Source: Acidimicrobiia bacterium
GTDB taxonomy: Bacteria; Actinomycetota; Acidimicrobiia; Spongiisociales; SHLN01
Reading direction: 5' to 3'
Length of the DNA: 64,000 nucleotides
Assembly (NCBI GenBank): GCA_041619515.1
Contig: JBFKDW010000001.1
Span: 15,129 to 79,128 of the forward strand
Shown: piece after piece, positions 2,702-60,877 of the stretch
How the letters are laid out: each line of letters begins with the position of its first letter
How positions within the stretch are numbered: position 1 is the stretch's first letter
Notes under the pieces: model-generated
Database searches by the model: none
What the model was told of the DNA's origin: nothing
What the model saw: only the letters and a program-made list of their open reading frames with translations
Position numbers and translations under genes: made by a program

Positions 2702-3630
2702 TAGGTGTTTCTGCGGTCGATCTCGTAGACGGAGCCCGGCTGGCGCTTGGCGTATTCCTTCATCTCCGAAGCCACCGCAGATGCCTCCCATTGATTGGAG
2801 ATATCACGATCTTTGGTGCTCACCACACCCAGCGAGATCGAGGTATGCGGGAAGGCATGGCGCTCGCCACGGCGATCGGTCACCTCGATGTAGCCGCGCA
2901 AGACGTCGCTGGTGTCGTAGAAATCGAGAATGCCCTCGTCGAAGGTCCTGATGAGGGTTTTGCAGAAGTCCTCCACTCCGTCGGGATCGACGATGGCAAC
3001 GAAGTCATCCCCGCCGACGTGTCCGACGAAGGCCTCGGGGTCATCGAGCCCGGCCTGGGCCTCGAGCATCACGTGGGCGGTGAACTTGATCACCCCGTCT
3101 CCGCGCATGAAGCCGTAGTGGTCGTTGAAGGCTTTGAAGTTGTCGAGATCAGCGTGTACGAGGGCGTACGGCTCACCGCTTTCGGTGCGCCGCTCCAACT
3201 CCTGCGTTATCCGGAAATTCCCGGGGAGACCGGTCAGCGGGGAAAGGTCGCGCATCGCCTTGGCACGCTGGAGCACGGTCCGCACCCGCACCATGAGCTC
3301 GTCGAGCTCGAAGGGCTTCGAGATGTAGTCGTCGGCACCCAGCTCCAGGCCTCGAATCCGATCCTGCGGCAAAGCCTTGGCGGTCAGCACGATGACCGGG
3401 ATGTTGGTGCTCACCGGGTGGGCGCGCATGCGGCGCAGCACGGCGAGACCGTCCATCTCGGGCATCATGATGTCGAGGATGACCAAATCGGGGGCGTTCT
3501 TGGTCACCGCGGCCAGAGCCGCCTTGCCGTCGGTGGCCGATGACACCTCGTAACCCTCGAGCTGCAGGTTCACCGAAACGAACTGGACTATGTCCGGATC
3601 ATCGTCGGCGATGAAAATATGTTCGTTCAT
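2701..3630 (-). CDS. Response regulator with receiver (REC) and GGDEF domains; GGDEF motif reads GGDDF and there is no RxxD I-site
   Basis: REC: IADDDPDIV...DLVILDIMMPEMDG...VIVLTAKA...DDYISKPF. GGDEF domain: ADLDNFKAFNDHYGF...GHVGGDDFVAIV. GGDDF is confirmed at the DNA level (GGC GGG GAT GAC TTC at 3001-3015). The ATG at 3630 overlaps the rpe stop (ATGA). Confidence 0.85.
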   Translation of the reverse strand: MNEHIFIADDDPDIVQFVSVNLQLEGYEVSSATDGKAALAAVTKNAPDLVILDIMMPEMDGLAVLRRMRAHPVSTNIPVIVLTAKALPQDRIRGLELGADDYISKPFELDELMVRVRTVLQRAKAMRDLSPLTGLPGNFRITQELERRTESGEPYALVHADLDNFKAFNDHYGFMRGDGVIKFTAHVMLEAQAGLDDPEAFVGHVGGDDFVAIVDPDGVEDFCKTLIRTFDEGILDFYDTSDVLRGYIEVTDRRGERHAFPHTSISLGVVSTKDRDISNQWEASAVASEMKEYAKRQPGSVYEIDRRNT

Positions 3631-4292
3631 CCGCTCTCGTTCTCTATGGCCGCTCGCAACTCTGCCACGGCATCGACGGGGTCGGGCCGTCCGAAAATGG
3701 CGGTGCCGGCAACGAAGATGTCGGCACCGGCGGCTCTCGCGAGCTTGCCTGTCTCGGGCGTAATGCCCCCGTCGATCTGTATATCGGCGGCAAACCCTTC
3801 AGAATCAATGATTTCCCTCGCATGTTCCACCTTCGTCAGCACGTCCGGGATGAACGCCTGGCCCCCAAATCCGGGATACACCGACATGATCAGCAGGTTG
3901 TCTACGAGGGAGAGGTACGGCTCGACCGCCGTCAGCGGTGTGGGCGGGTTGAGGGTCAGGCCGAATTGGAGGCCTTCGGCCCGGGCGGCCTCGGCCAGGG
4001 TGGTCGGATCGGGAGCCACCTCGATGTGAATCGTCACCATGTCGCATCCGGCCGCCTTGAAGTGAGGAAAGAAGTAGGCGGGGTTGTTCATCATCAAGTG
4101 GGTGTCGAAGAAGAGCCCGGTCGTCGGACGCAGATCTTCGATGACGCTGAGCCCGAAGGAGATATTGGGGACGAAATGACCGTCCATCACGTCGACGTGG
4201 AGCCCATCAACCACCTCCTCCACCCGGGCCACGTCCTCGGCAAGGTGAGCAAAATCTGCAGCCAGCAGTGAGGGGTAGATGCGAGCAGCCAT
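3627..4292 (-). CDS. rpe: Ribulose-phosphate 3-epimerase
   Basis: Contains LHVDVMDGHFVPNISFG...MSVYPGFGGQAF...DGGI, a typical Rpe. Confidence 0.9.
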   Translation of the reverse strand: MAARIYPSLLAADFAHLAEDVARVEEVVDGLHVDVMDGHFVPNISFGLSVIEDLRPTTGLFFDTHLMMNNPAYFFPHFKAAGCDMVTIHIEVAPDPTTLAEAARAEGLQFGLTLNPPTPLTAVEPYLSLVDNLLIMSVYPGFGGQAFIPDVLTKVEHAREIIDSEGFAADIQIDGGITPETGKLARAAGADIFVAGTAIFGRPDPVDAVAELRAAIENESG

Positions 4293-21081: not shown

Positions 21082-22230
21082 TCAGAAGCGGGTCAACCGT
21101 TTGCGGTAATGGTCGACCGCCGCCTGCAGATCGTCGACGGTGTCGCCACCGAACTTGCGCTGAACCTCCTGCGCCAGGACGATGGCCACCATCTGCTCGG
21201 CTACCACGCCTGCGGCGGGCACGGCACATACGTCGGATCTCTCCCGGATCGCCTTTTCCGGCTCCTTCGACGTGACGTCGACCGTCTGGAGGGCGCGCAT
21301 GAGGTTTGAGAGCGGCTTCATGGCCGCCCGCACCCGGATGATTCCGCCCATGCTCATGCCACCTTCGATCCCACCCGCCCGGTTGGTGTCTCGCACGAAC
21401 CCATCCTCGAAGCGGATCTCATCATGTGCCTTCGACCCGCGGCGGGTGGCTCCGGCCAGGCCGTCCCCGATTTCGACGGCCTTGATCGCCTGGATGGACA
21501 TGAGCGCCGCCGCCAGGCGAGCATCCAGCCGGCGGTCGTAGTGGACGTGGCTCCCGAGGCCCGGCATGGCGCCGTGCGCCACAACCTCTACGACACCGCC
21601 GAGCGTGTCGCGATCGGCCTTGGCAGCCTCGATCTCGGCGATCATCGCTTCGGCGCCTGCCGCGTCGAAGGCTCGCACCGGGGACGAATCGATGGCGGGA
21701 AGATCGGCCAGGGTCGGCACCGGGCCATCGGGAGCCCGGGCGGCTCCGATCGCCACGACGTGGCTGACGACCGTGATCTCAACCGCCGCCAGGAGCTCTT
21801 TGGCGAGGCTGCCGGCCACAGTGCGGGCTGCCGTCTCGCGCGCCGAGGCCCGCTCCAGGATGTCACGGGCATCATGCGTGTCGTACTTCTGCATGCCCGC
21901 CAGGTCGGCGTGACCGGGACGGGGGGCGGTCGCCGGGCGCTGTGACTCCCCAGGGAGAGGAGACATCTCACTGCTCCATTTATCCCATTCTGTGTTCCGG
22001 ACTACCACCGCCACCGGCGACCCGAGGGTCTTGCCGAACCGAACGCCGCCGAGAATCTCCAGTTCGTCGCGTTCGAGCTTCATGCGCGGTCCGCGGCCGA
22101 ACCCGAGTCTGCGGCGAGCCAGCTCGGCGGCGATGACCTCGGGGTCGACCCGGAGGCCCGCCGGAAGGCCCTCAACGATGGTGGTGAGGCCCGGGCCGTG
22201 CGACTCGCCGGCGGTCAGAAAACGCAACAT
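21082..22230 (-). CDS. aroC: Chorismate synthase
   Basis: MLRFLTAGESHGPGLTTIVEGLPAGL...GGRSSARETA. Start at the ATG at 22230. ORF 21082..22287 is over-extended. Confidence 0.85.
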   Translation of the reverse strand: MLRFLTAGESHGPGLTTIVEGLPAGLRVDPEVIAAELARRRLGFGRGPRMKLERDELEILGGVRFGKTLGSPVAVVVRNTEWDKWSSEMSPLPGESQRPATAPRPGHADLAGMQKYDTHDARDILERASARETAARTVAGSLAKELLAAVEITVVSHVVAIGAARAPDGPVPTLADLPAIDSSPVRAFDAAGAEAMIAEIEAAKADRDTLGGVVEVVAHGAMPGLGSHVHYDRRLDARLAAALMSIQAIKAVEIGDGLAGATRRGSKAHDEIRFEDGFVRDTNRAGGIEGGMSMGGIIRVRAAMKPLSNLMRALQTVDVTSKEPEKAIRERSDVCAVPAAGVVAEQMVAIVLAQEVQRKFGGDTVDDLQAAVDHYRKRLTRF

Positions 22231-22313
22231 GTAGAGGATGGTAGGCGGGAACCCAGGGCCGGCGTAGCTCCTTGCAGAGGTCTCCAACCACTAGGCGAAC
22301 ACGGCCGGCGAAG

Positions 22314-22856
22314 CTACTTGAGGATCTCTTCACCCACTGCAAGGGCAAACGGGCTGTCGCCGAACAAGAACGTGCCGCCCGTGTCGGTGAGGGTGACGAC
22401 CTGATAGCTGCCTGCAAACGTGTCGCCGACGCCAACCGTGTAGTCGGTTCCGGAGACGCGTACAACCGCTTGTCGCGTGCCGTCGCCGAGTGTGGTGACC
22501 GAGATCAGTGAGACCGGCGTGCCCCCCGGGTCGAAGCCGCCGTTGCCGCCGTCGCCGGTCCCATCGCCTTCCTCAGTGATGAGCGGCCGGAATGGATCGC
22601 GGGGCTGGGAGATCTGAAAGTCGTCGATCAACCGCATGCCGGGCAGGAGGTCGGCCGGCTGCTGGGAGACGATCCCCGCGTCGGCCAGCACCGTCGGCTC
22701 CAGCCGGTTGAGCGAAGATGACCCGATGAGGCTGGGAGCCACGAGCAGCCAGACGGCCGCGACCAGCAGCCCACCGACCAGGATCGAGCCGGTGCTGCTG
22801 GCAATGTGCTCTCGCAGACGAAGCAGCCGGCTGTCACGATATTCGAACTTCATCAT
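22314..22856 (-). CDS. PilP-like pilus assembly protein (N-terminal TM/signal anchor, Gly/Asp-rich linker, RDPF motif, C-terminal beta domain)
   Basis: N-terminal hydrophobic helix ILVGGLLVAAVWLLVAP, the conserved PilP-type motif RDPFRP, and a C-terminal beta-rich segment. The ATG overlaps the pilO stop (TAATG). No secretin follows; aroC is the next gene. Confidence 0.55.
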   Translation of the reverse strand: MMKFEYRDSRLLRLREHIASSTGSILVGGLLVAAVWLLVAPSLIGSSSLNRLEPTVLADAGIVSQQPADLLPGMRLIDDFQISQPRDPFRPLITEEGDGTGDGGNGGFDPGGTPVSLISVTTLGDGTRQAVVRVSGTDYTVGVGDTFAGSYQVVTLTDTGGTFLFGDSPFALAVGEEILK

Positions 22857-23446
22857 TATTCGCCGGCTCCATCGACAGGCTCGCCGGCATTTGCGACCGG
22901 GGCGCCGGCGAGATCGGATAGCGAGAAGGCGGTCGCAGTCATGGATACGGTCAAGATGTTTGTCCCGTCCTCATCCAGAGCCGAATCGATGCTGATCTGA
23001 TCGACCCGGACCAGGCGCTCGAGGTCCTCAATGGCAAAGAGAACGCTCAGTACCTTGAAATACGGTGCTTCGAAACGGATCGTCGTTGATATCTCGAAGA
23101 GGCCCTCCACGACGCTCGGAACGGGCGGGGTGGGGTTCAACGTGAGCAAGTCGACACCGGTGTCGACTGCGATGCTGTTGATGTCCTCGATGAGCGCCGC
23201 TCCGTCGGGGAAGGCGGGGATCGAGTTCTGAATCTCACTCAGCGCCAGGAGAAACTCTCCCTCCTTGGCGGCGAGCGCTTGCAGTTCGTTGCGGCGCGCC
23301 TCGAGAGTGGATTGCTCGATTTGCGCTGCCGCCTCTTGATCCTGGAAATCACTGATCTCGGTCGACTTGCCGGCCATGAACAGGAACCACCACCCGGCCG
23401 TTATCACGAGCACTCCCAGCACTCCGAAGATGAGCCCGCGCCGCAT
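22856..23446 (-). CDS. pilO: Type IV pilus inner-membrane alignment protein PilO
   Basis: Single N-terminal TM (LIFGVLGVLVITAGWWFLF), a coiled-coil region and a PilO-like periplasmic domain. Start at the ATG at 23446, overlapping the pilN stop. ORF 22856..23572 is over-extended. Confidence 0.7.
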   Translation of the reverse strand: MRRGLIFGVLGVLVITAGWWFLFMAGKSTEISDFQDQEAAAQIEQSTLEARRNELQALAAKEGEFLLALSEIQNSIPAFPDGAALIEDINSIAVDTGVDLLTLNPTPPVPSVVEGLFEISTTIRFEAPYFKVLSVLFAIEDLERLVRVDQISIDSALDEDGTNILTVSMTATAFSLSDLAGAPVANAGEPVDGAGE

Positions 23447-24069
23447 CAGGGGATCTCCGGTATTCGTTCGAACAACCTGCCGGACAGTGCGTCGGAGGTC
23501 AGACTGGTCGTCGAGCCAAACGTGACGACATCCTCCTCGGCGATCTGGCTCGCGATGATGCCGCTCGCCCACGTTCCCACCACACCGGGATAGCGGTCCG
23601 AGTCCAGGATCCGAATCCAGGCCGCCACGTCGGGCGGGGCGAATGCCGTGCCCGAAAAGGTGACCTCGCCGATGCTCGTGACGTCACCGGTGGGTGCAAC
23701 CGGGTTGGTGGTACCCGTGTAGTTGGTCACCCACACTCGATCGGGTATCAGCCTCCCGAGATCGTTGAGCAGCCGGCCCCAGCTGACGTCGTTGACGAGG
23801 GCGCTTCCCAGGAGCGTCACGCCGGCCTCGAACTCGTTGCGCACCGCCTCGGCCCCGGCCAGCGAGCTGACCTCCGCCTGGAGCTGCTGGTTGGTGGCCA
23901 GCTGAGCCTGCAGGTCGGCCTCGGCGTCGTTGACCGCCCCCTGTCGCCAGACGGCCACCGCGCCGAGCAGCAAGACATAGAGCACACCGAGGGCGAGCCA
24001 GAGGGCGAGCCGATTCCTCGCCTCGCTCGCTTTCTTCCCCGTCTGGGGTATGAGGTTGATCGTGCGCAT
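23446..24069 (-). CDS. pilN: Type IV pilus assembly protein PilN
   Basis: N-terminal INLIP motif (the PilM-binding INLLP motif), one TM helix and a coiled-coil. The ATG overlaps the pilM stop. Confidence 0.75.
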   Translation of the reverse strand: MRTINLIPQTGKKASEARNRLALWLALGVLYVLLLGAVAVWRQGAVNDAEADLQAQLATNQQLQAEVSSLAGAEAVRNEFEAGVTLLGSALVNDVSWGRLLNDLGRLIPDRVWVTNYTGTTNPVAPTGDVTSIGEVTFSGTAFAPPDVAAWIRILDSDRYPGVVGTWASGIIASQIAEEDVVTFGSTTSLTSDALSGRLFERIPEIP

Positions 24070-25160
24070 CAGCCCCCCCAGAGCGCCAGGCCGACGGGGA
24101 TGGGTATCACCGGCTGCATCGCGGAGATCTCAGCCTCGGACAGCTTGCCGGTGTTCAAGCCTTCGATGACCCGGGCGGGCTCGATCCGCGCACCGAGGGT
24201 GTCGCCGAGCCGGTTGGCGAGGTGCGGCAGCCGGGCTCCGTTGCCGGATACGATGATACGGCTGAGCTCGGCGTCATCGGACTGGCCCAGGTAGAAATTC
24301 ACCGAGCCGCGTACTTCGTCGATGAATCTCTCCGCCTGGGCATCGAGGATGGTTCGAGCTCGGTCCTCCAGCGCCGACACCGACGCGTCTCCGTCGTCGG
24401 CTGTGGGGGTGATGGCGGCGGCTTCCCCCCCAACCGGGGTCAGTCCCACCTGGCGCTTGAGGTCCTCGGCCTCTTCCCAGGTGACGTCGAGGCCGTCGAC
24501 CAGTGCGGCAGTGAAATCCTCTCCACCCTGCTGGAGCAAGCGGACAAAGCGCGGCTCCCCGGCGCGTACCAGCAACACCTGGGAGACCCCCGAGCCGATG
24601 TCGACGACCGCCGCCACGCTACCGATATCGAAATCACCGTAGAACAGGGCGCGGATGAGCCCGAAGGCTTGCAGGTCGAGGGCAATCGGCGTGATCCCGG
24701 CAGCATTGACCGCTGCGAGCAACGTTTCCACCATGTCCCGCTGCGCGGCCACGACGAGGATCGAGAGCATCGGCTCACCGTCGGGGGTGGTGAACTCCTC
24801 GATGGGGACGAAGTCCAGGAAGGTCTCCTCGACGGGGATTGGGATGTACTCCTGGACCTGGAACGGGAGTGCCTCGACCAGCTCGAGCTCACTCATGCGG
24901 GGAACGTCAACCTGGCGGACGATCACGCGTTGGTTGGCGAGGCCGAGCACGATGCGGCGCTTCGGCAGCTTGGTCTCCTTCCAGAGGCGGGAGATGGCGG
25001 CGGTCACGGCTTCGGGATCGACGATCTCGCCGGCCACCACCGCCCCGCGCTCGATGTCGACCTGGCCGATCCGGCGGATAACCGGGGGCTGTTTCCCGGT
25101 GTCGAGGGCGACGGCGCGCACACCGGTTGCGCCGATGTCCAGCCCCACGTTGACCGCCAT
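24069..25160 (-). CDS. pilM: Type IV pilus assembly ATPase-like protein PilM (actin/FtsA fold)
   Basis: MAVNVGLDIGATGVRAVAL... and an FtsA/PilM-like fold through to the C-terminus. An SD sequence GGAG lies 6 nt upstream. Confidence 0.85.
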   Translation of the reverse strand: MAVNVGLDIGATGVRAVALDTGKQPPVIRRIGQVDIERGAVVAGEIVDPEAVTAAISRLWKETKLPKRRIVLGLANQRVIVRQVDVPRMSELELVEALPFQVQEYIPIPVEETFLDFVPIEEFTTPDGEPMLSILVVAAQRDMVETLLAAVNAAGITPIALDLQAFGLIRALFYGDFDIGSVAAVVDIGSGVSQVLLVRAGEPRFVRLLQQGGEDFTAALVDGLDVTWEEAEDLKRQVGLTPVGGEAAAITPTADDGDASVSALEDRARTILDAQAERFIDEVRGSVNFYLGQSDDAELSRIIVSGNGARLPHLANRLGDTLGARIEPARVIEGLNTGKLSEAEISAMQPVIPIPVGLALWGG

Positions 25161-25193
25161 TGTTACTCCGCCTCAAGACACGAGCGCAGTGCC

Positions 25194-25207
25194 TTGTAAT
25201 TACAAGA
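25194..25207. promoter_or_regulatory. Perfect 14-bp AT-rich palindrome CTTGTAATTACAAG in the pilM upstream region (candidate operator)
   Basis: Seen in the sequence inside the only conspicuously AT-rich 100-bp stretch in the window (25161-25261). It lies about 35-47 bp upstream of the pilM ATG. A direct repeat ATTCGGG-N16-ATTCGGG lies 5 bp further upstream. Confidence 0.3.
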
Positions 25208-25261
25208 ATGTCATTCGGGAGATTAACAAACGATTCGGGCAGCGCAAGTCATAGCGGCGGC

Positions 25262-26038
25262 TCACCGGCCGAGATACCAGTCGACGAGCTGCTGCCCGAT
25301 CACCAGGGCCAGGTACGAGCCAAAGATCATGGCGGGTCCGAACGGGATCTTCGCCTTGCGGGTGGCTCTGCCGGCCAGCAGAAGGGCAATCGCGACCACC
25401 CCGCCGATGGCGATTCCGAGGGCAACGCCGGCGCCGAGCACCTCCCACGATCGATAGGTCAGGAAGAGCCCCAGGAAGAAGGCGAGCTTTACGTCACCCA
25501 GACCAAAGCCGCCGCGGGCGACGAGGGCAAGGGCGAGGAAGATCGCGAAATATAGGCTTGCCCCGGCGAGCGCCCGGCCAAAGGAAGCGAGATCTCCATC
25601 AGCGATGGCCGCCACGAGCAAGAGCGCAGCACCGACCAGCGTCGACGGATAGAGGATGCGATTCGGCAGCCGATGGACATCCAGGTCGGTGAGAACCAGC
25701 GCAAGGCCGACTCCCGCAAACCACAGGTAGGCCGGGAGCTCGGGCTCGATCCCAATAACGAGGACCGCAGACGCGAAGAGGATGGCGGCGCCCACCTCGA
25801 CGATCGGGTAGCGGACGCTGATATGGCCTCCACAGTCCCGGCAACGACCCCGCAGCAACACCCACGACAGCACGGGAATGTTGTCTCGCGGCCGGATGGC
25901 TGCCCGGCACACCGGGCAGGCGGACGGTGGTGAGACGACCGAGTGGCCGGCCGGGACCCGGTAGGCAACCACGTTGATGAACGAGCCGAAGATGAGGCCG
26001 AACAGTGCGGCCACGGCTACCGCAGGAAGGGCATCCAT
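25262..26038 (-). CDS. pilD: Prepilin peptidase (A24 family) PilD
   Basis: N-terminal zinc tetracysteine motif CPVC...CRDC, a polytopic membrane protein with catalytic Asp motifs (DLDVHRLP, GLGDVKL). Confidence 0.85.
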   Translation of the reverse strand: MDALPAVAVAALFGLIFGSFINVVAYRVPAGHSVVSPPSACPVCRAAIRPRDNIPVLSWVLLRGRCRDCGGHISVRYPIVEVGAAILFASAVLVIGIEPELPAYLWFAGVGLALVLTDLDVHRLPNRILYPSTLVGAALLLVAAIADGDLASFGRALAGASLYFAIFLALALVARGGFGLGDVKLAFFLGLFLTYRSWEVLGAGVALGIAIGGVVAIALLLAGRATRKAKIPFGPAMIFGSYLALVIGQQLVDWYLGR

Positions 26039-26066: not shown

Positions 26067-26543
26067 TTACCAGCCTGAAGCCGACCAGGTCCCGACGCCC
26101 GGGGGGCCGGCGGCGCTGCACGCACCGAACGGGTTCGCCGAGTGGCGGCCGAATTGGGTGCCACCGGCCGAGTTCTCCCAGATGGCGAGGAACTCACCGC
26201 GCGGGGTCCTGGCAACGAGACACACCACCTGAGCGGTGGGATCGATGGTGACGGCGACGGGGTCGAAGGTGTTGACGGCCGGGCTGGCACCGGTGACGTT
26301 GAACAAGCTCGGCTCGATCGCCGACAGCAGATCGAGATCGTCCGTGAACTGGGCTGCCCCGCCGGCGTAGTACGCCTTCTCCGTGGTGAGAGCGTTCCTG
26401 AGGTGGCTCTTGGCGGCCGAATCCTCCGCCTCCTTGCGTTGACCGAGGAAGGTCGGGATCGCAATGGCGATGAGGATCGCCACGATGAGGACGACGATCA
26501 TCAATTCGATGAGGGTGAATCCTCGGTCGTCTCTGCTCCACAT
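26067..26543 (-). CDS. pilA: Type IV major pilin paralog (class III signal peptide RG|FTLIELMIVV)
   Basis: MWSRDDRGFTLIELMIVVLIVAILIAIAIPTF..., a C-terminal Cys pair and ...SASGW. An SD sequence GAGAAGG lies upstream of the ATG at 26543. The rest of ORF 26067..26864 is an extension. Confidence 0.8.
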   Translation of the reverse strand: MWSRDDRGFTLIELMIVVLIVAILIAIAIPTFLGQRKEAEDSAAKSHLRNALTTEKAYYAGGAAQFTDDLDLLSAIEPSLFNVTGASPAVNTFDPVAVTIDPTAQVVCLVARTPRGEFLAIWENSAGGTQFGRHSANPFGACSAAGPPGVGTWSASGW

Positions 26544-26629: not shown

Positions 26630-26661
26630 CCCAACAACAGGAAACGGGCCCCGAAGGGCCC
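26630..26661 (-). terminator. Intrinsic terminator after the first pilin gene: GGGCCC-UUCG-GGGCCC stem-loop followed by GUUUCCUGUUGUUGG
   Basis: Seen in the sequence on the minus-strand RNA about 30 nt after the pilA1 stop. It has a GC stem, a UUCG tetraloop and a U-rich tail. Confidence 0.55.
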
Positions 26662-26688
26662 GAATCCGGTTTGCTTATCGAGCTGGGT

Positions 26689-27153
26689 TTACCAGCCGCC
26701 TGGCGTCCACGGAGCGCCGGGCTGGGCGACCGGGCAAGGCGCCGTAGTCGGAGCCGCCGCAGCTTTGTAGTAGACGGTTCCGGCAGTGGTCCCATCCCAG
26801 ACGGCGAAGTAGTCGCCGCCATCGCTCTGCTGCACGAGGCAGACAGAGACGCCACCAGCACCAATGGTCACCGTGACCGGGTCCGCACCGGTGCCGAACA
26901 GGTTCGGCTCGATGGCGGCAAGGTCGGCGGTGGTCGCCGTGAAGACCTGGTTCACGGAGAAGTAGGCCTTCTCGGTCGCCAGGGCGTTACGGACGTTGCT
27001 CTTGGCAGCGCTGTCCTGTGCGTTCTTCCGCTGACCCAGGAAGGTGGGGATGGCAATGGCGACCAGAATGGCAATAATCAGCACCACGACCATCAGCTCG
27101 ATGAGTGTGAAGCCCTCGTCCTTGTTGAGACGGGACCGCATCGCTTTGAGCAT
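26689..27153 (-). CDS. pilA: Type IV major pilin (class III signal peptide EG|FTLIELMVVV)
   Basis: MLKAMRSRLNKDEGFTLIELMVVVLIIAILVAIAIPTF..., a C-terminal Cys pair and ...TPGGW. A strong SD sequence AAGGAG lies 8 nt upstream of the ATG at 27153. Confidence 0.85.
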   Translation of the reverse strand: MLKAMRSRLNKDEGFTLIELMVVVLIIAILVAIAIPTFLGQRKNAQDSAAKSNVRNALATEKAYFSVNQVFTATTADLAAIEPNLFGTGADPVTVTIGAGGVSVCLVQQSDGGDYFAVWDGTTAGTVYYKAAAAPTTAPCPVAQPGAPWTPGGW

Positions 27154-27333: not shown

Positions 27334-28554
27334 CTAGCCGACGACGTTGACCAGGTTGAACATCGGCAGGTAGAGAGCCACGAGGATGCCGCCGACCGTC
27401 AATCCCATGAAGGCGATCAGGAGCGGCTCGAGCAAGCTGGTGAGGGCGTCGACGGTGTCGTTGACCTCCTGGTCGTAGAACGACGCCACCTTCTCCAGCA
27501 TGGCGTCGACGGCGCCGGTTTCCTCGCCCACTGCGATCATCTGCACGACCATGGACGGAAACACCTTGTGCTTGGCGAGGGGCACGGCGAGCGAGTCGCC
27601 ATCCTTCACCGACTTGGCGACGTCGGCGACTGCGTCGGAAACGATCGCATTGCCGGCCACGTCCCGAACGATCTCCATCGCCTGCAGGATGGGAACTCCC
27701 GTCCGCAGCAGGACGCCGAGCGTCGAGGAAAAGCGGCTGATTGCCGTCTTGTGAACCACTCCCCCGAACACCGGCATCTTCAGCTTGGCGGCGTCCCACA
27801 CGTGCCGTCCGGCGGTCGTGTTGATCCACCGACGGAACCCCCAGACCGACGCCCCCATGAGGGGAAACACGATGAACCAGAAAGACTTCAAGAGGTCTGA
27901 GCCGCCGATGAGGATCTTCGTCGGCACCGGCAGCTCGCCCCCCGCCCCGGCGTAGAGATCCTGAAAGATCGGCACCACGAAGACGAGCATGGCGAGGACC
28001 ACGAGAGCAACCATCGAGAGCACGACGACCGGGTAGGCCATCGCCGACTTGATCTTGCTGCGTAGCGCCACCTGGTTCTCGAGGGCGGCGGCCAGCCGCA
28101 GCAGCGTGTCGTCGAGGACACCACCGGCTTCCCCGGCGCGCACCATCGACGTGTAAAGCTGGCTGAATGCTTTGGGGTGCTTCTCCAGAGCCGCCGAGAG
28201 CCCGACGCCCCGCTCGACGTCGCGCCTCACCTCTCCGATTATCCGGGCCAGCGCTTTGGACTCGGTCTGCTCCTCGAGCACCGAGAGCGACCGCAGCAGC
28301 GAGAGTCCGGCGTTGATCATGGTGGCGAACTGGCGGCTGAAGACCGCCACCTCCTTCGCCTTGACCCGGTCGCTCAGGCCGGGGATGTTGATCTCCGTCT
28401 TCAGGCCGCTCGTCTTGACCTCGTCGACCGCCAGAGGGACTGCCCCTCGTTCCCGCAGGGCCTTGACGACCGCATCCCGGGAGGAACCTTCGATCTGCCC
28501 CTCGAGGACCTTGCCGCTCTTGTCCCGGGCGCGATAGTCGAACATGGTGGCCAT
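27334..28554 (-). CDS. pilC: Type IV pilus platform protein PilC (GspF family)
   Basis: Two T2SS-F repeats and three TM segments. MATMFDYRARDKSGK...FSRQFATMINAGLSL... Confidence 0.9.
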   Translation of the reverse strand: MATMFDYRARDKSGKVLEGQIEGSSRDAVVKALRERGAVPLAVDEVKTSGLKTEINIPGLSDRVKAKEVAVFSRQFATMINAGLSLLRSLSVLEEQTESKALARIIGEVRRDVERGVGLSAALEKHPKAFSQLYTSMVRAGEAGGVLDDTLLRLAAALENQVALRSKIKSAMAYPVVVLSMVALVVLAMLVFVVPIFQDLYAGAGGELPVPTKILIGGSDLLKSFWFIVFPLMGASVWGFRRWINTTAGRHVWDAAKLKMPVFGGVVHKTAISRFSSTLGVLLRTGVPILQAMEIVRDVAGNAIVSDAVADVAKSVKDGDSLAVPLAKHKVFPSMVVQMIAVGEETGAVDAMLEKVASFYDQEVNDTVDALTSLLEPLLIAFMGLTVGGILVALYLPMFNLVNVVG

Positions 28555-30087
28555 TTATCCCCCTCCCAGCAGGTGTTTGAGACCCTCGGCGTCTGCACAA
28601 CGTTCGAATGCGAGCTCGCGGGTTATCTTCCCGCGCTGGACGAGATCCGCCAGAGCCTGGTCCATCGTCTGCATCCCGTGCTGGGATCCGGCCTGCATGG
28701 CGGAGGGGATCTGGTGCACCTTTCCGTCGCGGATCTGGTTGCGAATGGCGGCGGTGGCGATCATGACCTCGACGGCCACTATTCGGCCCTTCCCATCCTG
28801 GGTGGGGAGCAGCTGTTGGCTGACAACGGCCTGCAGGGAGCTTCCCAGCTGGACTCGCACCTGCGATTGCTGATGTGAGGGGAACACGTCGATGACACGG
28901 TCGATGGATTGCGGGGCGCTCTGGGTGTGCAGCGTTCCGAAGACGAGGTGGCCCGTTTCGGCCGCCGTCAGCGCCGCACTGATCGTCTCGAGGTCGCGCA
29001 TCTCCCCGACCAGGATGACATCGGGGTCCTGGCGTAGGACGTGCTTGAGCGCGTGATTGAAGCTGAAGGTATCCGTTCCGACCTCGCGTTGGTTGACCAC
29101 GGCCTTCTTGTGCTTGTGGAGGAACTCGATTGGATCCTCGATCGTCATGATGTGGACCGCTCGCTCCTCGTTGATGCGGTTGACGATGGCGGCGAGCGTG
29201 GTGCTCTTACCGGACCCGGTGGGGCCCGTCACCAGCACCAGTCCTCGATGCAGATTCGCCAGCGAGCCGACCACGGGAGGCATGCCGAGTTTCTCCGGGG
29301 TGACGATCTCGTTCGGGATCGCCCGGAGCACAGCACCCACCGAGTCACGCTGAAAGAACACATTCACCCGGAAGCGGCCGTGGCCCGGCACCGGGTGCGA
29401 GGCATCGAGCTCACGATTTTCCTCCAGGCGCTGACGCTGGTCGGCGGTGAGGATGCCGTAGATCATCCGGCGCAGCTCGGCCGGCATCATGATGCCGAAG
29501 TCCTCCAACGGCTGGAGACGGCCGTTGACACGGATCTGGGGCTCCGTGCCGGCCGTGAGGTGGAGGTCGGACCCGGCGTTGTCCATGAGGATCACGAGCA
29601 GATCGTTGAGATGGATCTCCTGCGAGGTCTCCACCCGGGGAGCATCGTTCTCGCTGAGCGTGAAGTAGTCGCCGAGGATGCGGTCGATGGAGCGCTTGGA
29701 CGCCAGCCCCAGCGATACCGGGCTGCCGCACGCGGTCTCGAGGGTCTCCCGCAAGTTGGCGGTGAAAGGGTCCGCGACAGCCACGACCACCCTCTCCTCC
29801 TCGAGCGCAACGGGCACCGCCACCATGCGGCGCGCGGTGTCGGCGTCGATGCGGTCGAGGGCATCCGGCTGGATGATGGTCTGCTCGAGGTTGATGTAGT
29901 CGATGCCGAGTTGCTCGGCTACCACCATCAGCAAGTCTGCGTCGCTCACGTGACCAGACGTCACGAGCGTCTTGGCGAGGGGAATGCCGCCCCGGCTCTC
30001 CTCGATGAGCAGGTCTTCGAGCACATCCCGGCTCAGGAGGCGCCGGTTCACGAGCGCCTCGCCGAGCTGTCGGCTTACTCGGCTCAT
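28555..30087 (-). CDS. pilT: PilT-family retraction ATPase with an extra ~140-aa N-terminal GspE-N1/MshEN-like domain
   Basis: Core: Walker A GPTGSGKST, Asp box, His box and the C-terminal AIRNQIRDGK (PilT AIRNLIRE motif), with no tetracysteine. The N-terminal extension LGEALVNRRLLSRDVLEDLLIEE ... LAKTLVTSGHVSDADLLMVVAEQ resembles the tandem 24-residue MshEN motifs. The ATG at 30087 overlaps the pilB stop (ATGA). Confidence 0.8.
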   Translation of the reverse strand: MSRVSRQLGEALVNRRLLSRDVLEDLLIEESRGGIPLAKTLVTSGHVSDADLLMVVAEQLGIDYINLEQTIIQPDALDRIDADTARRMVAVPVALEEERVVVAVADPFTANLRETLETACGSPVSLGLASKRSIDRILGDYFTLSENDAPRVETSQEIHLNDLLVILMDNAGSDLHLTAGTEPQIRVNGRLQPLEDFGIMMPAELRRMIYGILTADQRQRLEENRELDASHPVPGHGRFRVNVFFQRDSVGAVLRAIPNEIVTPEKLGMPPVVGSLANLHRGLVLVTGPTGSGKSTTLAAIVNRINEERAVHIMTIEDPIEFLHKHKKAVVNQREVGTDTFSFNHALKHVLRQDPDVILVGEMRDLETISAALTAAETGHLVFGTLHTQSAPQSIDRVIDVFPSHQQSQVRVQLGSSLQAVVSQQLLPTQDGKGRIVAVEVMIATAAIRNQIRDGKVHQIPSAMQAGSQHGMQTMDQALADLVQRGKITRELAFERCADAEGLKHLLGGG

Positions 30088-31748
30088 GCCACCACCCGCA
30101 TGATTTCCTCGAGAGACGTCATGCCGGAGGCCACCTTTTCCAAGCCGTCCTGCCACAGGGTCGTCATACCCTCTTCGATGGCAACGGCCTGGATCTCGTC
30201 GGAGGGGCGCCGCTCGACAGACATCCGCTGAATGTCCTCACTGACGAGCAGAACCTCGTGAAGCGCCAGGCGACCGCGATAACCGGTGTTGGCGCACGAC
30301 TGACACCCGACCGCTTCGAAGACATGCTTGGGCACGTCGAGGCCGGCAGCCTCGAACTTGTCGGCAGCGGGCGCCGCCTCCTGGCGGCACTTGTCACACA
30401 ATCGGCGCGCCAGCCGCTGAGCCAGGATGGCGTCTATCGACGATGCCACCAGATACGGCTCCACGTCCATTTCGATGAGGCGGCCGATGCTGGAAGACGA
30501 GTCATTCGTGTGCAGGGTGGAGAGCACGAGGTGGCCGGTGAGGGCGGCCTCGATCGCGATCTGCGCCGTCTCCCGGTCGCGAATCTCACCGATGAGCGCG
30601 ATGTCGGGGTCGGCGCGCAATATCGACCGTAGCGCCGAGGCAAACGTCAGGCCGGCTTTGCGGTTGACCTGGACCTGGGTGATCCCGGCCAGCCGATACT
30701 CGACCGGGTCTTCCGTCGTGATGATGTTCACTTCCGGCCGGTTGAGCACGTTGAGCGTGGCGTACAGCGTCGTGGACTTCCCAGAACCGGTCGGGCCGGT
30801 CACGAGAATGGCTCCGTAGGGCTTGGTGTAGGACGACTCGAAGCGGGCAAGGTTGTGAGCGCTGAAGCCGAGGTCGGTCAGCTCCAGCAAGATGGAGCTT
30901 CGATCCAGGATCCGAAGCACCACCTTCTCACCGTAGACCGAGGGCAGCGTCGCGACACGCAGGTCGACCTGGCGGCCCTGGACTTTGAGGCTGATACGGC
31001 CATCCTGTGGGATCCGTCGCTCGGCGATATTGATGTCCGCCATGATCTTGAGGCGGCTCACCATGGCGTTGGTTATCGAGCGGGGGGTGGTCATCGCCTC
31101 GTGCAGAACGCCGTCGATCCGGAAGCGGACCCGCAGGTCCTTCTCCCCCGGCTCGATATGGATGTCCGAGGCACGTTCGTTCATTGCCCGCGTGATGATC
31201 GTGTTCACCAGCTTGACGACCGGTGCTTCGTCGACCGAGGCTTCGATGGCGCTGAGGTCCTCGACTTCCGCTCCCTCGTCGAGCAGATCACCGAATTCCG
31301 AGACGGCATCATCGAACTGAGCCATCCTCGAAAGAGCATCCATGACCTCAGTGCGCGTGGCTACCTTGGGGCGGACATCCATGCCGGTGATGGCCCGGAT
31401 ATCGTCGATCGCCAGCACGTTGGCCGGGTCTGCCATTGCGACGATCAGGCTGCCGTCTTCGGAGAATCCGATGGGGATGGCGGCGTAGCGGCGGGCGAGG
31501 GCTTCCGGTACGAGAGCACTCGCCGAGGGATCGATGGTGACCTCGTCGAGGGCGACGAACTCCAGCCCGATATGGCGGGCAAGGGTCTTGACGAGATCGG
31601 TTTCCTTGACGAAACCCTCTTCCACGAGGATCCGCCCGAGAGGCATTCCGCTTTCGGCTTGAATCTCGGTCGCACGATCGAGATCGGCCCTGCTCAGCAG
31701 GCCTTCCTGGAGCAGCATCGTGCCGAGATGCCGCGCTTCGGTAGTCAC
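30084..31748 (-). CDS. pilB: Type IV pilus assembly (extension) ATPase PilB with N-terminal MshEN-type domain
   Basis: GspE-family core with Walker A GPTGSGKST and tetracysteine zinc motif (CDKC...CQSC). The N-terminus HLGTMLLQEGLLSRADLDRATEIQ and LGRILVEEGFVKETDLVKTLARHIG matches the tandem MshEN consensus RLGxxLLxxGLLxxxxLxxxLxxQ. Confidence 0.9.
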   Translation of the reverse strand: MTTEARHLGTMLLQEGLLSRADLDRATEIQAESGMPLGRILVEEGFVKETDLVKTLARHIGLEFVALDEVTIDPSASALVPEALARRYAAIPIGFSEDGSLIVAMADPANVLAIDDIRAITGMDVRPKVATRTEVMDALSRMAQFDDAVSEFGDLLDEGAEVEDLSAIEASVDEAPVVKLVNTIITRAMNERASDIHIEPGEKDLRVRFRIDGVLHEAMTTPRSITNAMVSRLKIMADINIAERRIPQDGRISLKVQGRQVDLRVATLPSVYGEKVVLRILDRSSILLELTDLGFSAHNLARFESSYTKPYGAILVTGPTGSGKSTTLYATLNVLNRPEVNIITTEDPVEYRLAGITQVQVNRKAGLTFASALRSILRADPDIALIGEIRDRETAQIAIEAALTGHLVLSTLHTNDSSSSIGRLIEMDVEPYLVASSIDAILAQRLARRLCDKCRQEAAPAADKFEAAGLDVPKHVFEAVGCQSCANTGYRGRLALHEVLLVSEDIQRMSVERRPSDEIQAVAIEEGMTTLWQDGLEKVASGMTSLEEIMRVVA

Positions 31749-32649: not shown

Positions 32650-33768
32650 CTAGATCACTCCTTCAGCCCGCGCCTTGGCTACCTTGGCGTTGTGTTCGTC
32701 GAGGGTTGATGAGAAGCCATGGCGGCCGTCGAAGTCCACCACCACGTAGTAGTAGAAGTTGGTGTCGGCCGGATCGGCGGCCGCCTCCAGCGAGGCGCGC
32801 CGGACCGCGCCGATGGGAGTGGGCACCAGGCCGGCATATCTATAGGTGTTGTACAGCGAGTCGATCTCGCGATCTACCGCCAGCGGCACTCCCCGCACCC
32901 CCTTGGCATACACGAGAGCGGCGTCGATGTTGAGCCCCTGGCCGATGGCGAGCCTGTTGTAGATGACGCTGCTGATCAGCGGGCGGTCCTCGTCGAGCTT
33001 CGCCTCGGCCTCGACCATCGAGGCAACGATGAGCGCATCGTAGATGGCTTCGTTGGTGGCGGTCTCGGGATCATCCACGAAGCCGAGCGATTCGAGCCGC
33101 GACCAGTCGACGGCGGCCACGCGGTCTTCCATCGTGGAAACCAGCGTGCCGACAATGGTGTCGGGGGTGGCGTCGACGAAGAACTCATACGTGTCCGGGA
33201 ACAGGAGGCCCTCCCACTGGCTGAGGCGGTCACCGCTCATGGACTCCGGCATGAGGTTGGATGTCACCCGTCCCGACAGGAGCGGCTCGGACAACTCCTC
33301 GGCGGTGTACTCCGTTTGCCTGGCCAGAGACGCAATGACTTCATCGACCCAGAGGCCCTCGATGACGGTGATTCGGAAGGTCTGCCCGCCCACCGGCCCC
33401 CGCACCAGCTCCTCGAGCACGGCGTCGACGCCCATTCCCGTGGTCAGGCTGTAGGAACCGGCTTTCAGGACGGCGTTCAAACCCCGGACTGCGACCTCGT
33501 CGACGAATTCGACCGAAGAGGCGATGACTCCGGCGTCGGCGAGGAGCGAGCCGATGTTGCGGGCAGTGGACCCGCTCGGAATGTCGACTGCCACCGGAAG
33601 CCCTGCCACAAGGGTGGAGGCGGCCTCCGGGCGAACCGCCTCCCCTGCCCAGCTCCCGATCCGGACGGTGGCAAACGCCCCGGCTGTCAGGAGCACCAGG
33701 GTGACGAGCGGCGCCACCCAGAACGGACGGCGCGGCGGAATTGGATCGTATTGAGGGACGACGGTCAT
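32650..33768 (-). CDS. mltG: Endolytic murein transglycosylase MltG (YceG-like)
   Basis: N-terminal TM and a YceG domain (GSYSLTTGM...YNTYRYAGLVPTPI). Confidence 0.8.
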   Translation of the reverse strand: MTVVPQYDPIPPRRPFWVAPLVTLVLLTAGAFATVRIGSWAGEAVRPEAASTLVAGLPVAVDIPSGSTARNIGSLLADAGVIASSVEFVDEVAVRGLNAVLKAGSYSLTTGMGVDAVLEELVRGPVGGQTFRITVIEGLWVDEVIASLARQTEYTAEELSEPLLSGRVTSNLMPESMSGDRLSQWEGLLFPDTYEFFVDATPDTIVGTLVSTMEDRVAAVDWSRLESLGFVDDPETATNEAIYDALIVASMVEAEAKLDEDRPLISSVIYNRLAIGQGLNIDAALVYAKGVRGVPLAVDREIDSLYNTYRYAGLVPTPIGAVRRASLEAAADPADTNFYYYVVVDFDGRHGFSSTLDEHNAKVAKARAEGVI

Positions 33769-34169
33769 CGTTGAGAATCTAGGTGACCCTGCAACATAAC
33801 TGTTGCCGCCATCTTGTCGCGGATATCGCGTCGTTTTTTCCGGCGCACCCCGCCGGCGATGAGGGCGTCCTCCGCCAGCTTGGTCGTGAACCGTTCGTCG
33901 ACGAACACAACTTCCAGGCCGGAATGATCCGCCACCCGCTCCCCGAAGGAGCGGGCCGCGGCTGCCGACGCCCCCTCCTCTCCCGACAGCGCCACGGGAA
34001 GACCGACGATGATGGCATCGATGTCCTCTGCTGCGAGGATCTCATCCAGAGCCGGCAGCAGCTCGGCGGCATCGACCACTGCGTATGGGGATGCGATCAG
34101 GCGTGACGAGTCCGATATCGCAACACCGACCCGCCTGGTTCCGTAGTCGAGGCCGAGCAGGCGTCCCAA
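33765..34169 (-). CDS. ruvX: Putative pre-16S rRNA nuclease / Holliday junction resolvase-like YqgF
   Basis: LLGLDYGTRRVGVAISD...AIIVGLP...FVDERFTT. Confidence 0.85.
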   Translation of the reverse strand: MGRLLGLDYGTRRVGVAISDSSRLIASPYAVVDAAELLPALDEILAAEDIDAIIVGLPVALSGEEGASAAAARSFGERVADHSGLEVVFVDERFTTKLAEDALIAGGVRRKKRRDIRDKMAATVMLQGHLDSQR

Positions 34170-51108: not shown

Positions 51109-51389
51109 TCGCCGTCGATCCTGGCGGCGATCGCGGCCCTCACCAGCCGGAGGCGGGTGCCGTCGCTGACCAGCACCACCTGCTCTTCGTCGAGCGACTC
51201 GACGGTTCCGAGAACGCCACCGTACGATCGGACCTCGTCGCCCACTTGCAGGGTGGCGAGGAACGCTGTGCGATCACGGAGGCGCTTGCGTTGTCTGAGG
51301 CTCATGAACAGGAACAGTCCCCCAAAGATGACAATGATCACGATCAGATTCAATGCCCCGGCATCTCCGGATGTTTGCGCAATCAACAT
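51105..51389 (-). CDS. yajC: Preprotein translocase subunit YajC
   Basis: 94 aa with a single TM. ...LQVGDEVRSYGGVLGTVESLDEEQVVL. Confidence 0.8.
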   Translation of the reverse strand: MLIAQTSGDAGALNLIVIIVIFGGLFLFMSLRQRKRLRDRTAFLATLQVGDEVRSYGGVLGTVESLDEEQVVLVSDGTRLRLVRAAIAARIDGE

Positions 51390-51428
51390 GAGGCACGGAT
51401 CGTACTAAGGACTGAGCCGCACCCGGCA

Positions 51429-58758: not shown

Positions 58759-59859
58759 TCAATCCCAGGTAACGTTCCCGGACACCGGGGTCACGTGAAT
58801 CCAGGTGCGGCCCGGCTTGAGGGCGATGCTGTCGCCTTCGCCGGTGCGGAATGCGAAGAAGTCGTCTTCCGCCTGGCGGACCCAGTCGCCTTCGAACACG
58901 CGGCCGTCGCGGAACACCAGCGCCCGGCCGGTGCCGGTGACCTCGTAATCCGGGACCGGCGACCCGGCGGCGTCGACCCGTCCGGTCCTGATCGTGTCGA
59001 CGTAGACCACCACCACCGAATCGGCCGACACGCGGACGTCGTCGGCGTCGACAGACTCCGTGCCATCCTGGGATCGAAGGTAGCGGCCATCCTCGAACGT
59101 CCATGAGAGCGAGTTCCGGCCGGACATGCGCACGTCGATCTCGGCAGCCTCTTCCCCGCCTGCGAGCGGGCCGGCATCGAACTCGAGCATCGGTTCGACG
59201 GTGCCGTCCCATTCGAGATCGGGAAGGTTCTCCACGTCGTACATCAGCGAGTACACGAACTCACGGTCCGCTTCCCGGCGATAGCCGGGGATGCGCCCAT
59301 CCCCCTCGTCGACCGCCACCCGTCCGAGATCACGGCGCACCGCCCACTGGCCCCCGCTGCTCAGGACCCTGGCATCGAAGGGAGCGATCAGTCTCGGATC
59401 GACTTCCCGCAAGCTTCTCACCGGGCCGACGGTTTCGGGGTATGTGCTCTGAAACACGGCCAGCCAGCGTCCGATGCCGCCTTCCACCAGCACCTCCATG
59501 ACGATGTCGGCCTGGTTGATCCCGGCTTGAGGTCGGCCCTTGGGGGCGTTGGACAGCTTGGCGATCAGCACCTGCTGGTCCGAGATCGCCCCGGCGACAC
59601 CGGTGAGCGGCGCGGGAGGGCCGAGGTCGACGGTCGTGGTCGTGGCCGGGACCGCAGTCGTGGTGGTCGGCGCCGACGTGGTGGTCGTCGTCGAGGAATT
59701 CGGGACGCGCGCCAGCTCGGTGGTCAAAGTCACCGGGTCGGGAGCCGCCGCAGCACCGCTGCAGGCTGCAGCCACCAGGCTGACGAGGATGATTAGGACG
59801 CGAATTCTCACAGTAAGTTGAGCGAGGTTACTCGCTCCTATTCTCGACCGCTTCGGCAT
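58759..59859 (-). CDS. Secreted lipoprotein with Thr-rich linker and DUF3048-like domain
   Basis: Signal peptide plus lipobox (LVAAAC|SG), a poly-Thr linker (SSTTTTTSAPTTTTAVPATTTT) and a globular C-terminal domain. Its 5' end overlaps the pimA 3' end by 32 nt. An alternative GTG start lies at about 59811. Confidence 0.55.
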   Translation of the reverse strand: MPKRSRIGASNLAQLTVRIRVLIILVSLVAAACSGAAAAPDPVTLTTELARVPNSSTTTTTSAPTTTTAVPATTTTVDLGPPAPLTGVAGAISDQQVLIAKLSNAPKGRPQAGINQADIVMEVLVEGGIGRWLAVFQSTYPETVGPVRSLREVDPRLIAPFDARVLSSGGQWAVRRDLGRVAVDEGDGRIPGYRREADREFVYSLMYDVENLPDLEWDGTVEPMLEFDAGPLAGGEEAAEIDVRMSGRNSLSWTFEDGRYLRSQDGTESVDADDVRVSADSVVVVYVDTIRTGRVDAAGSPVPDYEVTGTGRALVFRDGRVFEGDWVRQAEDDFFAFRTGEGDSIALKPGRTWIHVTPVSGNVTWD

Positions 59860-60877
59860 ATACCTTGAGGTACTCGGTCATGACCCGTTCCCGATCGAAG
59901 GTCGCCACGCGTTCCCGGGCCCGCCGCTGGTATTCTGCCCGAACTTCCCGGTCCCGCACCATCGTCTTGAGGGCGCGCTCGAGCGCCGCCACATCCTCGG
60001 GCGGGGCGTAGAGGGCAGCGTCGCCCGCCACGAAGCGGAATGCCGGCAGGGCTGAGGCGACGACGGCGCATCCGGAAGCCATCGCCTCCAGGAGCACCAG
60101 GCCGAAGCTCTCACCGCCGGTGTTGGGAGCCACGAACACATCCGCCGACGCCAAGGCCTGGCGCTTGGTCGCCTCGTCGACCGGCCCGAGGAAACGCACG
60201 CCGGGGGCATCGGGTCGGCTGGCGCCGATCACGGTCAGCTCGGTGTCGGGCGTGCTCGATCGCAGCTGCCGGTAGGCGGACAGCAGGACGTCGAGGCCCT
60301 TGCGAGGCTCATCGCGACCGATGAAGACCATGCGTCCTGGGGTCTTGGCCGAGAACGGATCGTATCGCGAGGTGTCGATGCTGTTGGGGATGATGCGAGC
60401 CACACCCACGATCGGCTCGATGGCAGACGCTGCCACCGGGCTGACGGCAACCGCAACCGCCAGGCGCTCGGCCAGCCTTCGCCAGTGGCGCCGCCCGGCG
60501 GTGTAGAGAATCCGCACCCCCCGGCCCGGATCGGCGTGGAACGTACCGACTTTGGCGATGTCTGGTACCCGCAGCGCCCCGAGCGACACCGCCGGCACGA
60601 ACGGCTCGTGAATATGCAGGACATCGGCGCCTGCCACGGCTTGGGAAACCCGGCTCGCCGTCCCCGCATTCAGGCGAACCGGAGCTATCGACCGATTCGT
60701 CCGCAGGTTGGTGGTCCCGCCGAGATGCACCGTGCCTTCCGGCCCCCCGCCCTCGCCCGGTGCAACGAGCCAAGCGTCGTGGTCCGCCCCTCGCAGCCAT
60801 TCGACCAGATCGCATGCCTGGGCCTGAACGCCGCCCATCCGGTCGAGCGAATAGGGCGACACGACCGCGATCCTCAC
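59828..60877 (-). CDS. pimA: GT4-family glycosyltransferase, phosphatidylinositol mannosyltransferase PimA-like
   Basis: C-terminal GT4 region with the ESFGLVLLEAMASG motif. The GTG start at 60877 overlaps the upstream stop (GTGA). The N-terminal 137 aa of ORF 59828..61288 is an extension. Confidence 0.75.
   Translation of the reverse strand: MRIAVVSPYSLDRMGGVQAQACDLVEWLRGADHDAWLVAPGEGGGPEGTVHLGGTTNLRTNRSIAPVRLNAGTASRVSQAVAGADVLHIHEPFVPAVSLGALRVPDIAKVGTFHADPGRGVRILYTAGRRHWRRLAERLAVAVAVSPVAASAIEPIVGVARIIPNSIDTSRYDPFSAKTPGRMVFIGRDEPRKGLDVLLSAYRQLRSSTPDTELTVIGASRPDAPGVRFLGPVDEATKRQALASADVFVAPNTGGESFGLVLLEAMASGCAVVASALPAFRFVAGDAALYAPPEDVAALERALKTMVRDREVRAEYQRRARERVATFDRERVMTEYLKVYAEAVENRSE

Follow-up and report, generated by a model that had tools for sequence, protein, structure and literature searches.

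The spacer between the prepilin peptidase gene pilD and pilM in a 64-kb stretch of Acidimicrobiia DNA (the window) contains an 18-bp dyad, AATGACA-TTCT-TGTAATT (7-4-7; 25198-25215, minus strand), which is the universally conserved element of this spacer in related loci. On balance, we consider it probable that this candidate operator serves a dimeric DNA-binding protein, probably a repressor, at an internal promoter specific to pilMNO. The pilM leader downstream encodes a covarying RNA hairpin, and control of the pilMNO genes is probably separate from that of the pilin genes and pilD in this Gram-positive-type pilus cluster.

Results

Genomic context and conservation of the pilD-pilM spacer

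According to profile searches and independent gene calls, the pilus genes occupy the minus strand and form a cluster embedded among housekeeping genes, with aroE, mltG, alaS, and aspS on one side and aroC (21082-22287), aroK, aroB, efp, and nusB on the other. On the minus strand, pilB (30084-31748) is followed by the gene for a second MshEN-domain ATPase (28555-30156), pilC (27334-28554), the pilin genes pilA1 (26689-27153, 154 aa) and pilA2 (26067-26543, 158 aa), and pilD (25262-26038; Pfam domains A24_N_bact and Peptidase_A24), the end of which bounds the 101-bp spacer (25161-25261). The pilM gene (24069-25160; Pfam PilM_2, E=2e-40; ATG at 25160-25158), also found by independent gene calls, heads the series pilM-pilN-pilO-orf180 (pilN, 23446-24069; pilO, 22856-23572; orf180, 22314-22856; all minus strand). 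The related loci likewise have one or more pilin genes and pilD upstream of pilM. The nearest relatives are uncultured Acidimicrobiia, and a search for PilM homologues returned only relatives at the level of Acidimicrobiia, with no cultured host among them.

The GC content of the spacer is 51.5%, and the lowest 100-bp window in it has 49%, against a mean of 66.6% for the whole window (standard deviation of 100-bp windows, 4.8%). A preliminary description of this DNA regarded the spacer as the only strongly AT-rich 100 bp in a window of roughly 69% GC; it is in fact less GC-rich without being strongly AT-rich, and it is one of five minima at or below 50%, the others being located at 3548-3647, 33738-33840, 51286-51415, and 59781-59889. 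These four stretches lie apparently at or close to gene boundaries, and may be further promoter regions.

For comparison we collected 63 Acidimicrobiia loci encoding PilM relatives of 40-90% identity, 15 from genomes and 48 from metagenomes, which yielded 52 distinct pilM-upstream sequences. The motif TGTAATT or its one-base variant CGTAATT is present in 49 of the 52. Anchoring on TGTAATT, with its first T as position 0, produced a gapless alignment of 41 distinct sequences; for the percentages by family, 25 sequence families were weighted equally. At four-fold degenerate sites of pilM the nine closest relatives compared are 41-50% identical to the window, that is, neutral positions are saturated, which also excludes the possibility that these relatives are assembly duplicates. 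Despite this saturation, the spacer retains long invariant blocks in close relatives, and the predicted promoter and the dyad described below are kept across Acidimicrobiia down to about 47% identity of PilM. Judged from these sequences, the pilD-pilM spacer is a conserved regulatory region and no chance AT-rich patch.

The 18-bp dyad

The conserved element has the general form AATsACA-N4-TGTAATT and is two-fold symmetric. All 41 distinct sequences agree in ACA at -7..-5, in G, T, and A at +1..+3, and in T at +6, and 39 of them have T at position 0 (CGTAATT occurs in L010 and L032). Flanking positions are somewhat less conserved, with 72-88% of families retaining AAT at -11..-9, 72% retaining A at +4, and 96% retaining T at +5. 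The N4 segment between ACA and TGT has identical length in all 41 sequences, whereas its bases vary freely. The half-sites are 11 bp apart from centre to centre, or about one helical turn. Symmetric conserved half-sites, fixed spacing, and free spacer sequence are the pattern of a palindromic operator.

The feature noticed originally was a 14-bp palindrome, CTTGTAATTACAAG. It is real and perfect, but it lies at 25193-25206 and not at 25194-25207, and thus 33-46 nt upstream of the pilM ATG in place of 35-47. Its conserved core, TGTAATTACA (25195-25204), is composed of the right half-site of the 18-bp dyad and the adjoining ACA. Perfect 14-bp palindromes of any composition are about as frequent as expected by chance (11 in the window versus 9.0 in shuffled sequences); an AT-rich one is unusual, occurring once versus 0.03 times in shuffles. 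In close relatives the core and TTACAAG are invariant, apart from the final A-G step, where L006/L018 have A in place of G, whereas the two outermost 5' bases of the 14-mer vary (ATTG, CATG, GTTG, ACTG), the 3' side reads ...CAAA in L006, and the outer CT..AG changes without compensation. Among all families, the 3' ACA of the 14-mer (+7..+9) is kept in just 56-80%. The conserved unit is therefore the 18-bp dyad and not the 14-mer.

A direct repeat ATTCGGG-N16-ATTCGGG had also been proposed as an element. The two copies are located at 25213-25219 and 25233-25239, with a gap of 13 nt and not 16 (period 20). The downstream copy is made up of the discriminator and the AAT of the left half-site of the dyad; the upstream one (CCCGAAT on the minus strand, 25233-25239) falls into the variable spacer between the -35 and -10 hexamers and is absent from the relatives, unrelated sequence being found there in L001-L006. 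A single recurrence of a 7-mer in 100 bp is, as we roughly estimate, no more than chance would produce. The upstream copy is no conserved element, and the repeat was rejected as a binding site.

About half of the sequences contain a second, overlapping 7-4-7 dyad, AATTACr-N4-yGTrAnn, for instance, AATTACG-ttcg-CGTGATT in L041 and AGTTACA-tatt-CGTAATC in L007. The window lineage has no right half of this second dyad, and the L007 clade (L007, L008, L014, L029, L030, L031, and L062) has both dyads, arranged as GGTTACA-cttg-TGTAGTTACA-tatt-CGTAATC. The distance from the dyad to the ATG ranges from 44 to 169 nt. The leaders of L010 and L011 reach about 165 nt (that of L032 is also long); in the L010 group the stretch between the dyad and the downstream hairpin is expanded, and short tandem repeats are present in the leaders of L010 and L011, GCACGAACAA occurring about three times in L010.

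Predicted pilM promoter

Hexamers and spacing of the housekeeping-sigma type (sigma-70/HrdB) were found immediately upstream of the dyad. The predicted -35 hexamer TTGCGC (25242-25247, minus strand) lies within the conserved block TGACTTGCG (25243-25251), which is invariant in close relatives; 16 nt further is the predicted extended -10 element, TGT followed by TAATCT (25220-25228; hexamer at 25220-25225). In most families a TTGnnn sequence is present 16-18 nt upstream of the -10 hexamer, which conforms to TAnnnT (TAATCT, TAACCT, TAGTCT, TACGCT, TAGGCT, TAACGT, and others); TGn precedes it in many families, as read by eye from the printed sequences. A generic promoter scan with the E. coli consensus did not report TTGCGC/TAATCT, presumably as these hexamers are too far from that consensus. 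Other assignments, namely a sigma-54 promoter, AATGACA as a -35 box, and TGTAAT as a -10 box, were rejected by eye since their spacings do not fit. Both the promoter function of the hexamers and the position of the start are predicted from consensus and conservation.

In most sequences TAnnnT ends 14-16 nt upstream of TGTAATT; the distance is longer in L041, L044, and L045 (19 nt) and in the L010 group (22 nt), and shorter in L058 (11 nt). The dyad thus keeps its distance to the -10 hexamer, whereas its distance to the ATG is so variable, and therefore it appears to be tied to the promoter and not to translation. Promoter geometry puts the start zone 5-9 nt past the -10 hexamer, at 25212-25216 (minus strand), so that the predicted start falls inside the left half-site. 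The site is therefore positioned downstream of the -10 hexamer and over the predicted start, which replaces its former placement at -35 to -47.

In the L007 clade the TTG/TAnnnT pair is missing from its usual position. Members of this clade share a conserved CTTGCC just 2 nt upstream of the left half-site, which itself overlaps a -10-like TACACT and therefore would not all be transcribable there.

A covarying hairpin in the pilM leader

The predicted leader contains an RNA hairpin, designated hairpin 2, CAAGGCAC[UGCGCUC]GUGUCUUG (25174-25196, minus strand). The final four bases of the palindrome are part of its 5' arm. The preliminary description did not mention this hairpin. Downstream is the Shine-Dalgarno region GAGGCGGAG (25166-25174, minus strand), invariant among close relatives and conforming to G(A/G)G(C/G)GGAG in most families.

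In 22 sequences 89.3% of the cells of hairpin 2 are paired, compared with 53.5% in shuffles; seven of the nine pairs change on both sides, and the covariation score is 0.879 versus 0.243. None of 500 shuffles reached the observed value, and in controls with a slid register pairing fell to 26-64%. G-U pairs outnumber A-C pairs by 28 to 2, therefore the structure is that of the sense-strand RNA. Hairpin 2 thus shows compensatory changes on the transcribed strand, as is expected of a structured RNA. The stems are unrelated between families (CAAGGCGCC, CGCGGTGC, TCCGGTC, TGCGCGT, TTCCGGAC, GGTCGGG, GGGAAGC, GGAGGC, GGGGCC), whereas the loop GyGCU(G) is kept, which suggests specific recognition of the loop.

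The covariance model R1 has hairpin 2 as its only significant match in the window, this sequence being part of the R1 seed. R1 is too short to detect hairpin 2 in families that did not contribute to the seed, and for these the presence of the hairpin was assessed by a direct hairpin search with shuffle controls. A stem of at least 6 bp with a GCU loop was found in 12 of 22 family representatives, where 0-14 of 200 shuffles each match or exceed it; in the remaining representatives the hairpin is weak or absent. Rfam 15 gave no match with E<=1 in 24500-26000, and none at the gathering score in 18 related loci. Two functions were rejected: hairpin 2 has no U-tract (the sequence downstream is AGGCGGAG) and is no intrinsic terminator, and its loop is complementary to the Shine-Dalgarno sequence no more than by chance, the longest complement being 3.15 nt versus 3.22 nt for shuffled loops. 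The roles that we favour for it are in mRNA stability or processing, or in protein binding.

Search for further sites and for a regulator

The 14-mer, its 10-mer core, the full dyad with up to three mismatches, and the degenerate pattern WNACA-N4-TGTNW all identify this site alone in the window, apart from one three-mismatch match to the dyad at 42706, which is within chance expectation. TGTAATT does not occur elsewhere in 299 kb (the window and the related loci), and no regulon is visible in it. Further copies of the palindrome, the search for which had been recommended as a check, are thus lacking both in 64 kb and in 299 kb. The lack of a second copy does not refute the function of the site, because its conservation in orthologous positions shows selection. 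Neither the 64 kb of the window nor the surroundings of pilM in related loci yielded a regulator gene, and no toxin-antitoxin, ribbon-helix-helix (RHH), or relBE-like genes are present nearby.

Discussion

Action at the DNA or at the RNA level

The reading of the dyad as an operator is based on its near-invariant half-sites, fixed N4 spacing, and free spacer bases, and on the lack of RNA covariation. It is also favoured by the L007 clade, where part of the left half-site would lie outside the transcript. Counting against it are the single copy of the dyad in 299 kb, the negative search for a regulator gene in the window and beside pilM, and the unusual promoter region of the L007 clade. In the principal alternative, the transcript starts at approximately AAUGACA, and a 5'-terminal stem-loop presents UGUAAUU and either protects the mRNA from decay dependent on the 5' end or binds a regulator or a small RNA. 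RNAfold does predict 5'-proximal hairpins that include UGUAAUU in many families (L012, L013, L028, L034-L040, L043-L047, and L058). The sense strand of the segment -11..+27 is more stable than the antisense strand in 19 of 26 families (p=0.005), although part of this bias derives from downstream hairpins in the folded segment. A U-G pair is changed to C-G in the L034 clade, in the hairpin that presents UGUAAUU in its loop, and in the L007 clade pairing is rich in G-U (GGUUAC/GUAAUC). In addition, the neighbouring hairpin 2 demonstrates that the leader is under selection at the RNA level. The L034 change and the strand bias make some RNA-level constraint on the dyad bases possible. However, covariation is observed in neither of the pairings tested. 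The dyad halves taken as an RNA stem are paired in 82.6% of cells versus 82.9% in shuffles, with zero compensatory changes and a mismatched central pair in 36 of 41 sequences, and RNAfold never predicted their pairing in the folded sequences; a nested 32-nt long hairpin in a fixed register gives 50.9% versus 49.8%. Both structures were rejected. Depending on the family, UGUAAUU falls into a loop (L034 and L009) or a stem (L043 and the window), but at the DNA level its surroundings are constant: the N4 spacing and the ACA and TGT triplets are invariant whether paired or not, the fixed distance is that to the -10 hexamer and not to the ribosome-binding site, and changes in the outer palindrome bases are not compensated in the window lineage. 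We thus regard RNA action of the dyad as possible but rather unlikely.

Two further alternatives seem very improbable to us. An element of the pilD 3' end (a terminator or processing site), or a relaxed AT-rich spacer with chance repeats, would be in agreement with the location directly after the pilD stop codon and with the lower GC content that intergenic regions of GC-rich genomes often have. Against this, 25161-25261 contains no terminator consisting of a hairpin and a U-tract, the conserved blocks are invariant at a distance where neutral sites are saturated, and the place of the element relative to pilM is kept even in the loci with a long spacer (L007 and L010). The dyad of the window lineage also spells a possible leaderless mini-ORF, AUG ACA UUC UUG UAA (MTFL; 25200-25214, minus strand), translation of which might modulate pilM. 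An ATG and an in-frame TAA or TAG are present within the dyad in the window and in the families with AATGACA, the predicted start coincides with or adjoins the A of this ATG, and TAA or TAG occupies +2..+4 in every aligned sequence. The ATG itself, however, is not conserved, being replaced in AATAACA (L002, L005, and L006) and by ATC, ACC, or GTT elsewhere, so that such a role for the mini-ORF would hardly be expected.

Comparison with known regulatory systems

A literature search on the core palindrome led to relO, the operator of relBE in E. coli, TTGTAATGACAT + TTGTAATTACAA, which is bound by RHH dimers of RelB from -10 to +17 and represses transcription (PMC2812701). The window sequence, AATGACATT-CT-TGTAATTACAAG, matches 9 + 12 = 21 bases of relO with a 2-nt insertion: TTGTAATTACAA is identical, the neighbouring AATGACAT is shared, and both are built of TGTnA-type hexads in alternating orientation. 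Both also extend from about -10 to about +20 of a promoter, the one in the window being predicted. The example of relO shows that an operator of nearly this sequence, placed in this way, is able to repress transcription. Nevertheless, we consider it improbable that the pilM site is occupied in the manner of relO, by RHH dimers of the RelB/CopG type each reading TGT-N4-ACA (TTGTAATTACAA). The relO sequence has four hexads [A/T]TGT[A/C]A in two abutting 12-bp sites that tolerate no spacing, and a 2-nt insertion between the half-sites derepressed relBE transcription 45-fold in E. coli (PMC2812701); the window has three hexads, the leftmost being absent (CCCGAA), with ACA-N4-TGT in place of ACA-N2-TGT. 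The relO pair is head-to-head (TGT..ACA), whereas the universal unit at pilM is the tail-to-tail pair ACA-N4-TGTA, and the 3' ACA of the palindrome is kept in just 56-80% of families. Finally, relO fronts toxin-antitoxin genes and the window site fronts pilM. Neither the architecture nor the location is thus that of a RelB/relO-type operator, and the resemblance may be coincidental.

Another similar sequence is the BldD box of Streptomyces, 5'-TNAC-N5-GTNA-3' (PMC4151990). Both are TnAC...GTnA pseudo-palindromes, and that of BldD is bound by an actinobacterial dimeric repressor, whose activating ligand is c-di-GMP, a messenger with frequent links to pili. Compared by pattern alone, the pilM site is no BldD box: in all sequences it has TnAC-N6-GTnA (14 bp) and not N5 (13 bp), and the flanking AAT/ATT are conserved. 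A BldD gene is not known from this lineage, nor was one seen. We therefore treat relO and the BldD box as leads to how the site may work, not as assignments. The dyad motif bears no relation to the known sites of PilR or AlgR.

In Pseudomonas and Myxococcus, operons of the pilMNOPQ type have their own promoter, separate from pilA and pilBCD. Here pilM likewise heads a separately organized operon for the assembly platform; in contrast to those operons, it belongs to a Gram-positive-type cluster (pilB, the second ATPase, pilC, pilA1, pilA2, pilD, pilM, pilN, and pilO) without pilP and pilQ. Leaders of the ompA type contain 5'-UTR stem-loops that stabilize or gate mRNAs, and hairpin 2 is also a covarying leader stem close to the ribosome-binding site; it differs from them in the conserved loop GyGCU(G) and has no Rfam family.

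Proposed mechanism and significance

Returning to the operator model, we propose that an internal promoter of the housekeeping-sigma type (-35 TTGCGC, 16-nt spacer, and extended -10 TGT-TAATCT) would drive pilM-pilN-pilO-orf180. A dimeric DNA-binding protein would bind AATGACA-N4-TGTAATT over the predicted start and, when bound, would block the binding or escape of RNA polymerase, resulting in repression. The transcript would then carry hairpin 2 just before the ribosome-binding site, where it might act at the RNA level on mRNA stability or processing, or as a protein-binding element. Protein binding and repression at the dyad are the most likely interpretation of the sequence data. The idea that a dedicated site provides separate control of the pilM operon, already put forward in the preliminary description, is favoured by the comparative evidence, whereas the conserved unit and its position turned out to be different and the direct repeat is no part of it.

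The elements considered here, a promoter, an operator, and a leader hairpin, are of ordinary kinds. More speculatively, the dyad and the GyGCU(G)-loop hairpin might together constitute an undescribed two-layer switch, common to the class Acidimicrobiia, that controls assembly-platform genes of the type IV pilus; we regard this as a tentative and rather unlikely idea. If it were true, the promoter would be gated by a dedicated repressor, which might respond to a second messenger, a separate RNA-binding factor or a nuclease would read the loop, and hairpin 2 would represent a new family of cis-regulatory RNAs. To our knowledge, nothing is known about the control of type IV pili in the abundant, mostly uncultured Acidimicrobiia of marine waters and sediments, and our literature search found no paper linking Acidimicrobiia to pilM. 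The results offer two handles on this control: the dyad can be used as bait for DNA-affinity capture of the regulator, and hairpin 2 provides a defined RNA element.

Several other features of the pilus cluster deserve mention. A terminator-like hairpin, CGGGCCCTTCGGGGCCCG, followed by TTTCC, is located at 26645-26662 between the tandem pilin genes pilA1 and pilA2, which suggests that pilA1 encodes the major pilin and is expressed at a high level, whereas pilA2 and pilD would be reached by attenuated read-through. Both secretion ATPases (28555-30156 and 30084-31748, minus strand) have an N-terminal MshEN domain, which in other systems binds c-di-GMP; the second ATPase is therefore unlike the usual short PilT, and the pilus motor may be a target of c-di-GMP. 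Directly after pilO, orf180 (minus strand) encodes 180 aa with gene-like codon composition and without a Pfam match, and may specify an uncharacterized component of the pilus platform. Finally, the longest perfect palindrome of the window, AGTCGACACCGGTGTCGACT, has 20 bp and lies at 23149-23168, within the coding region of pilO.
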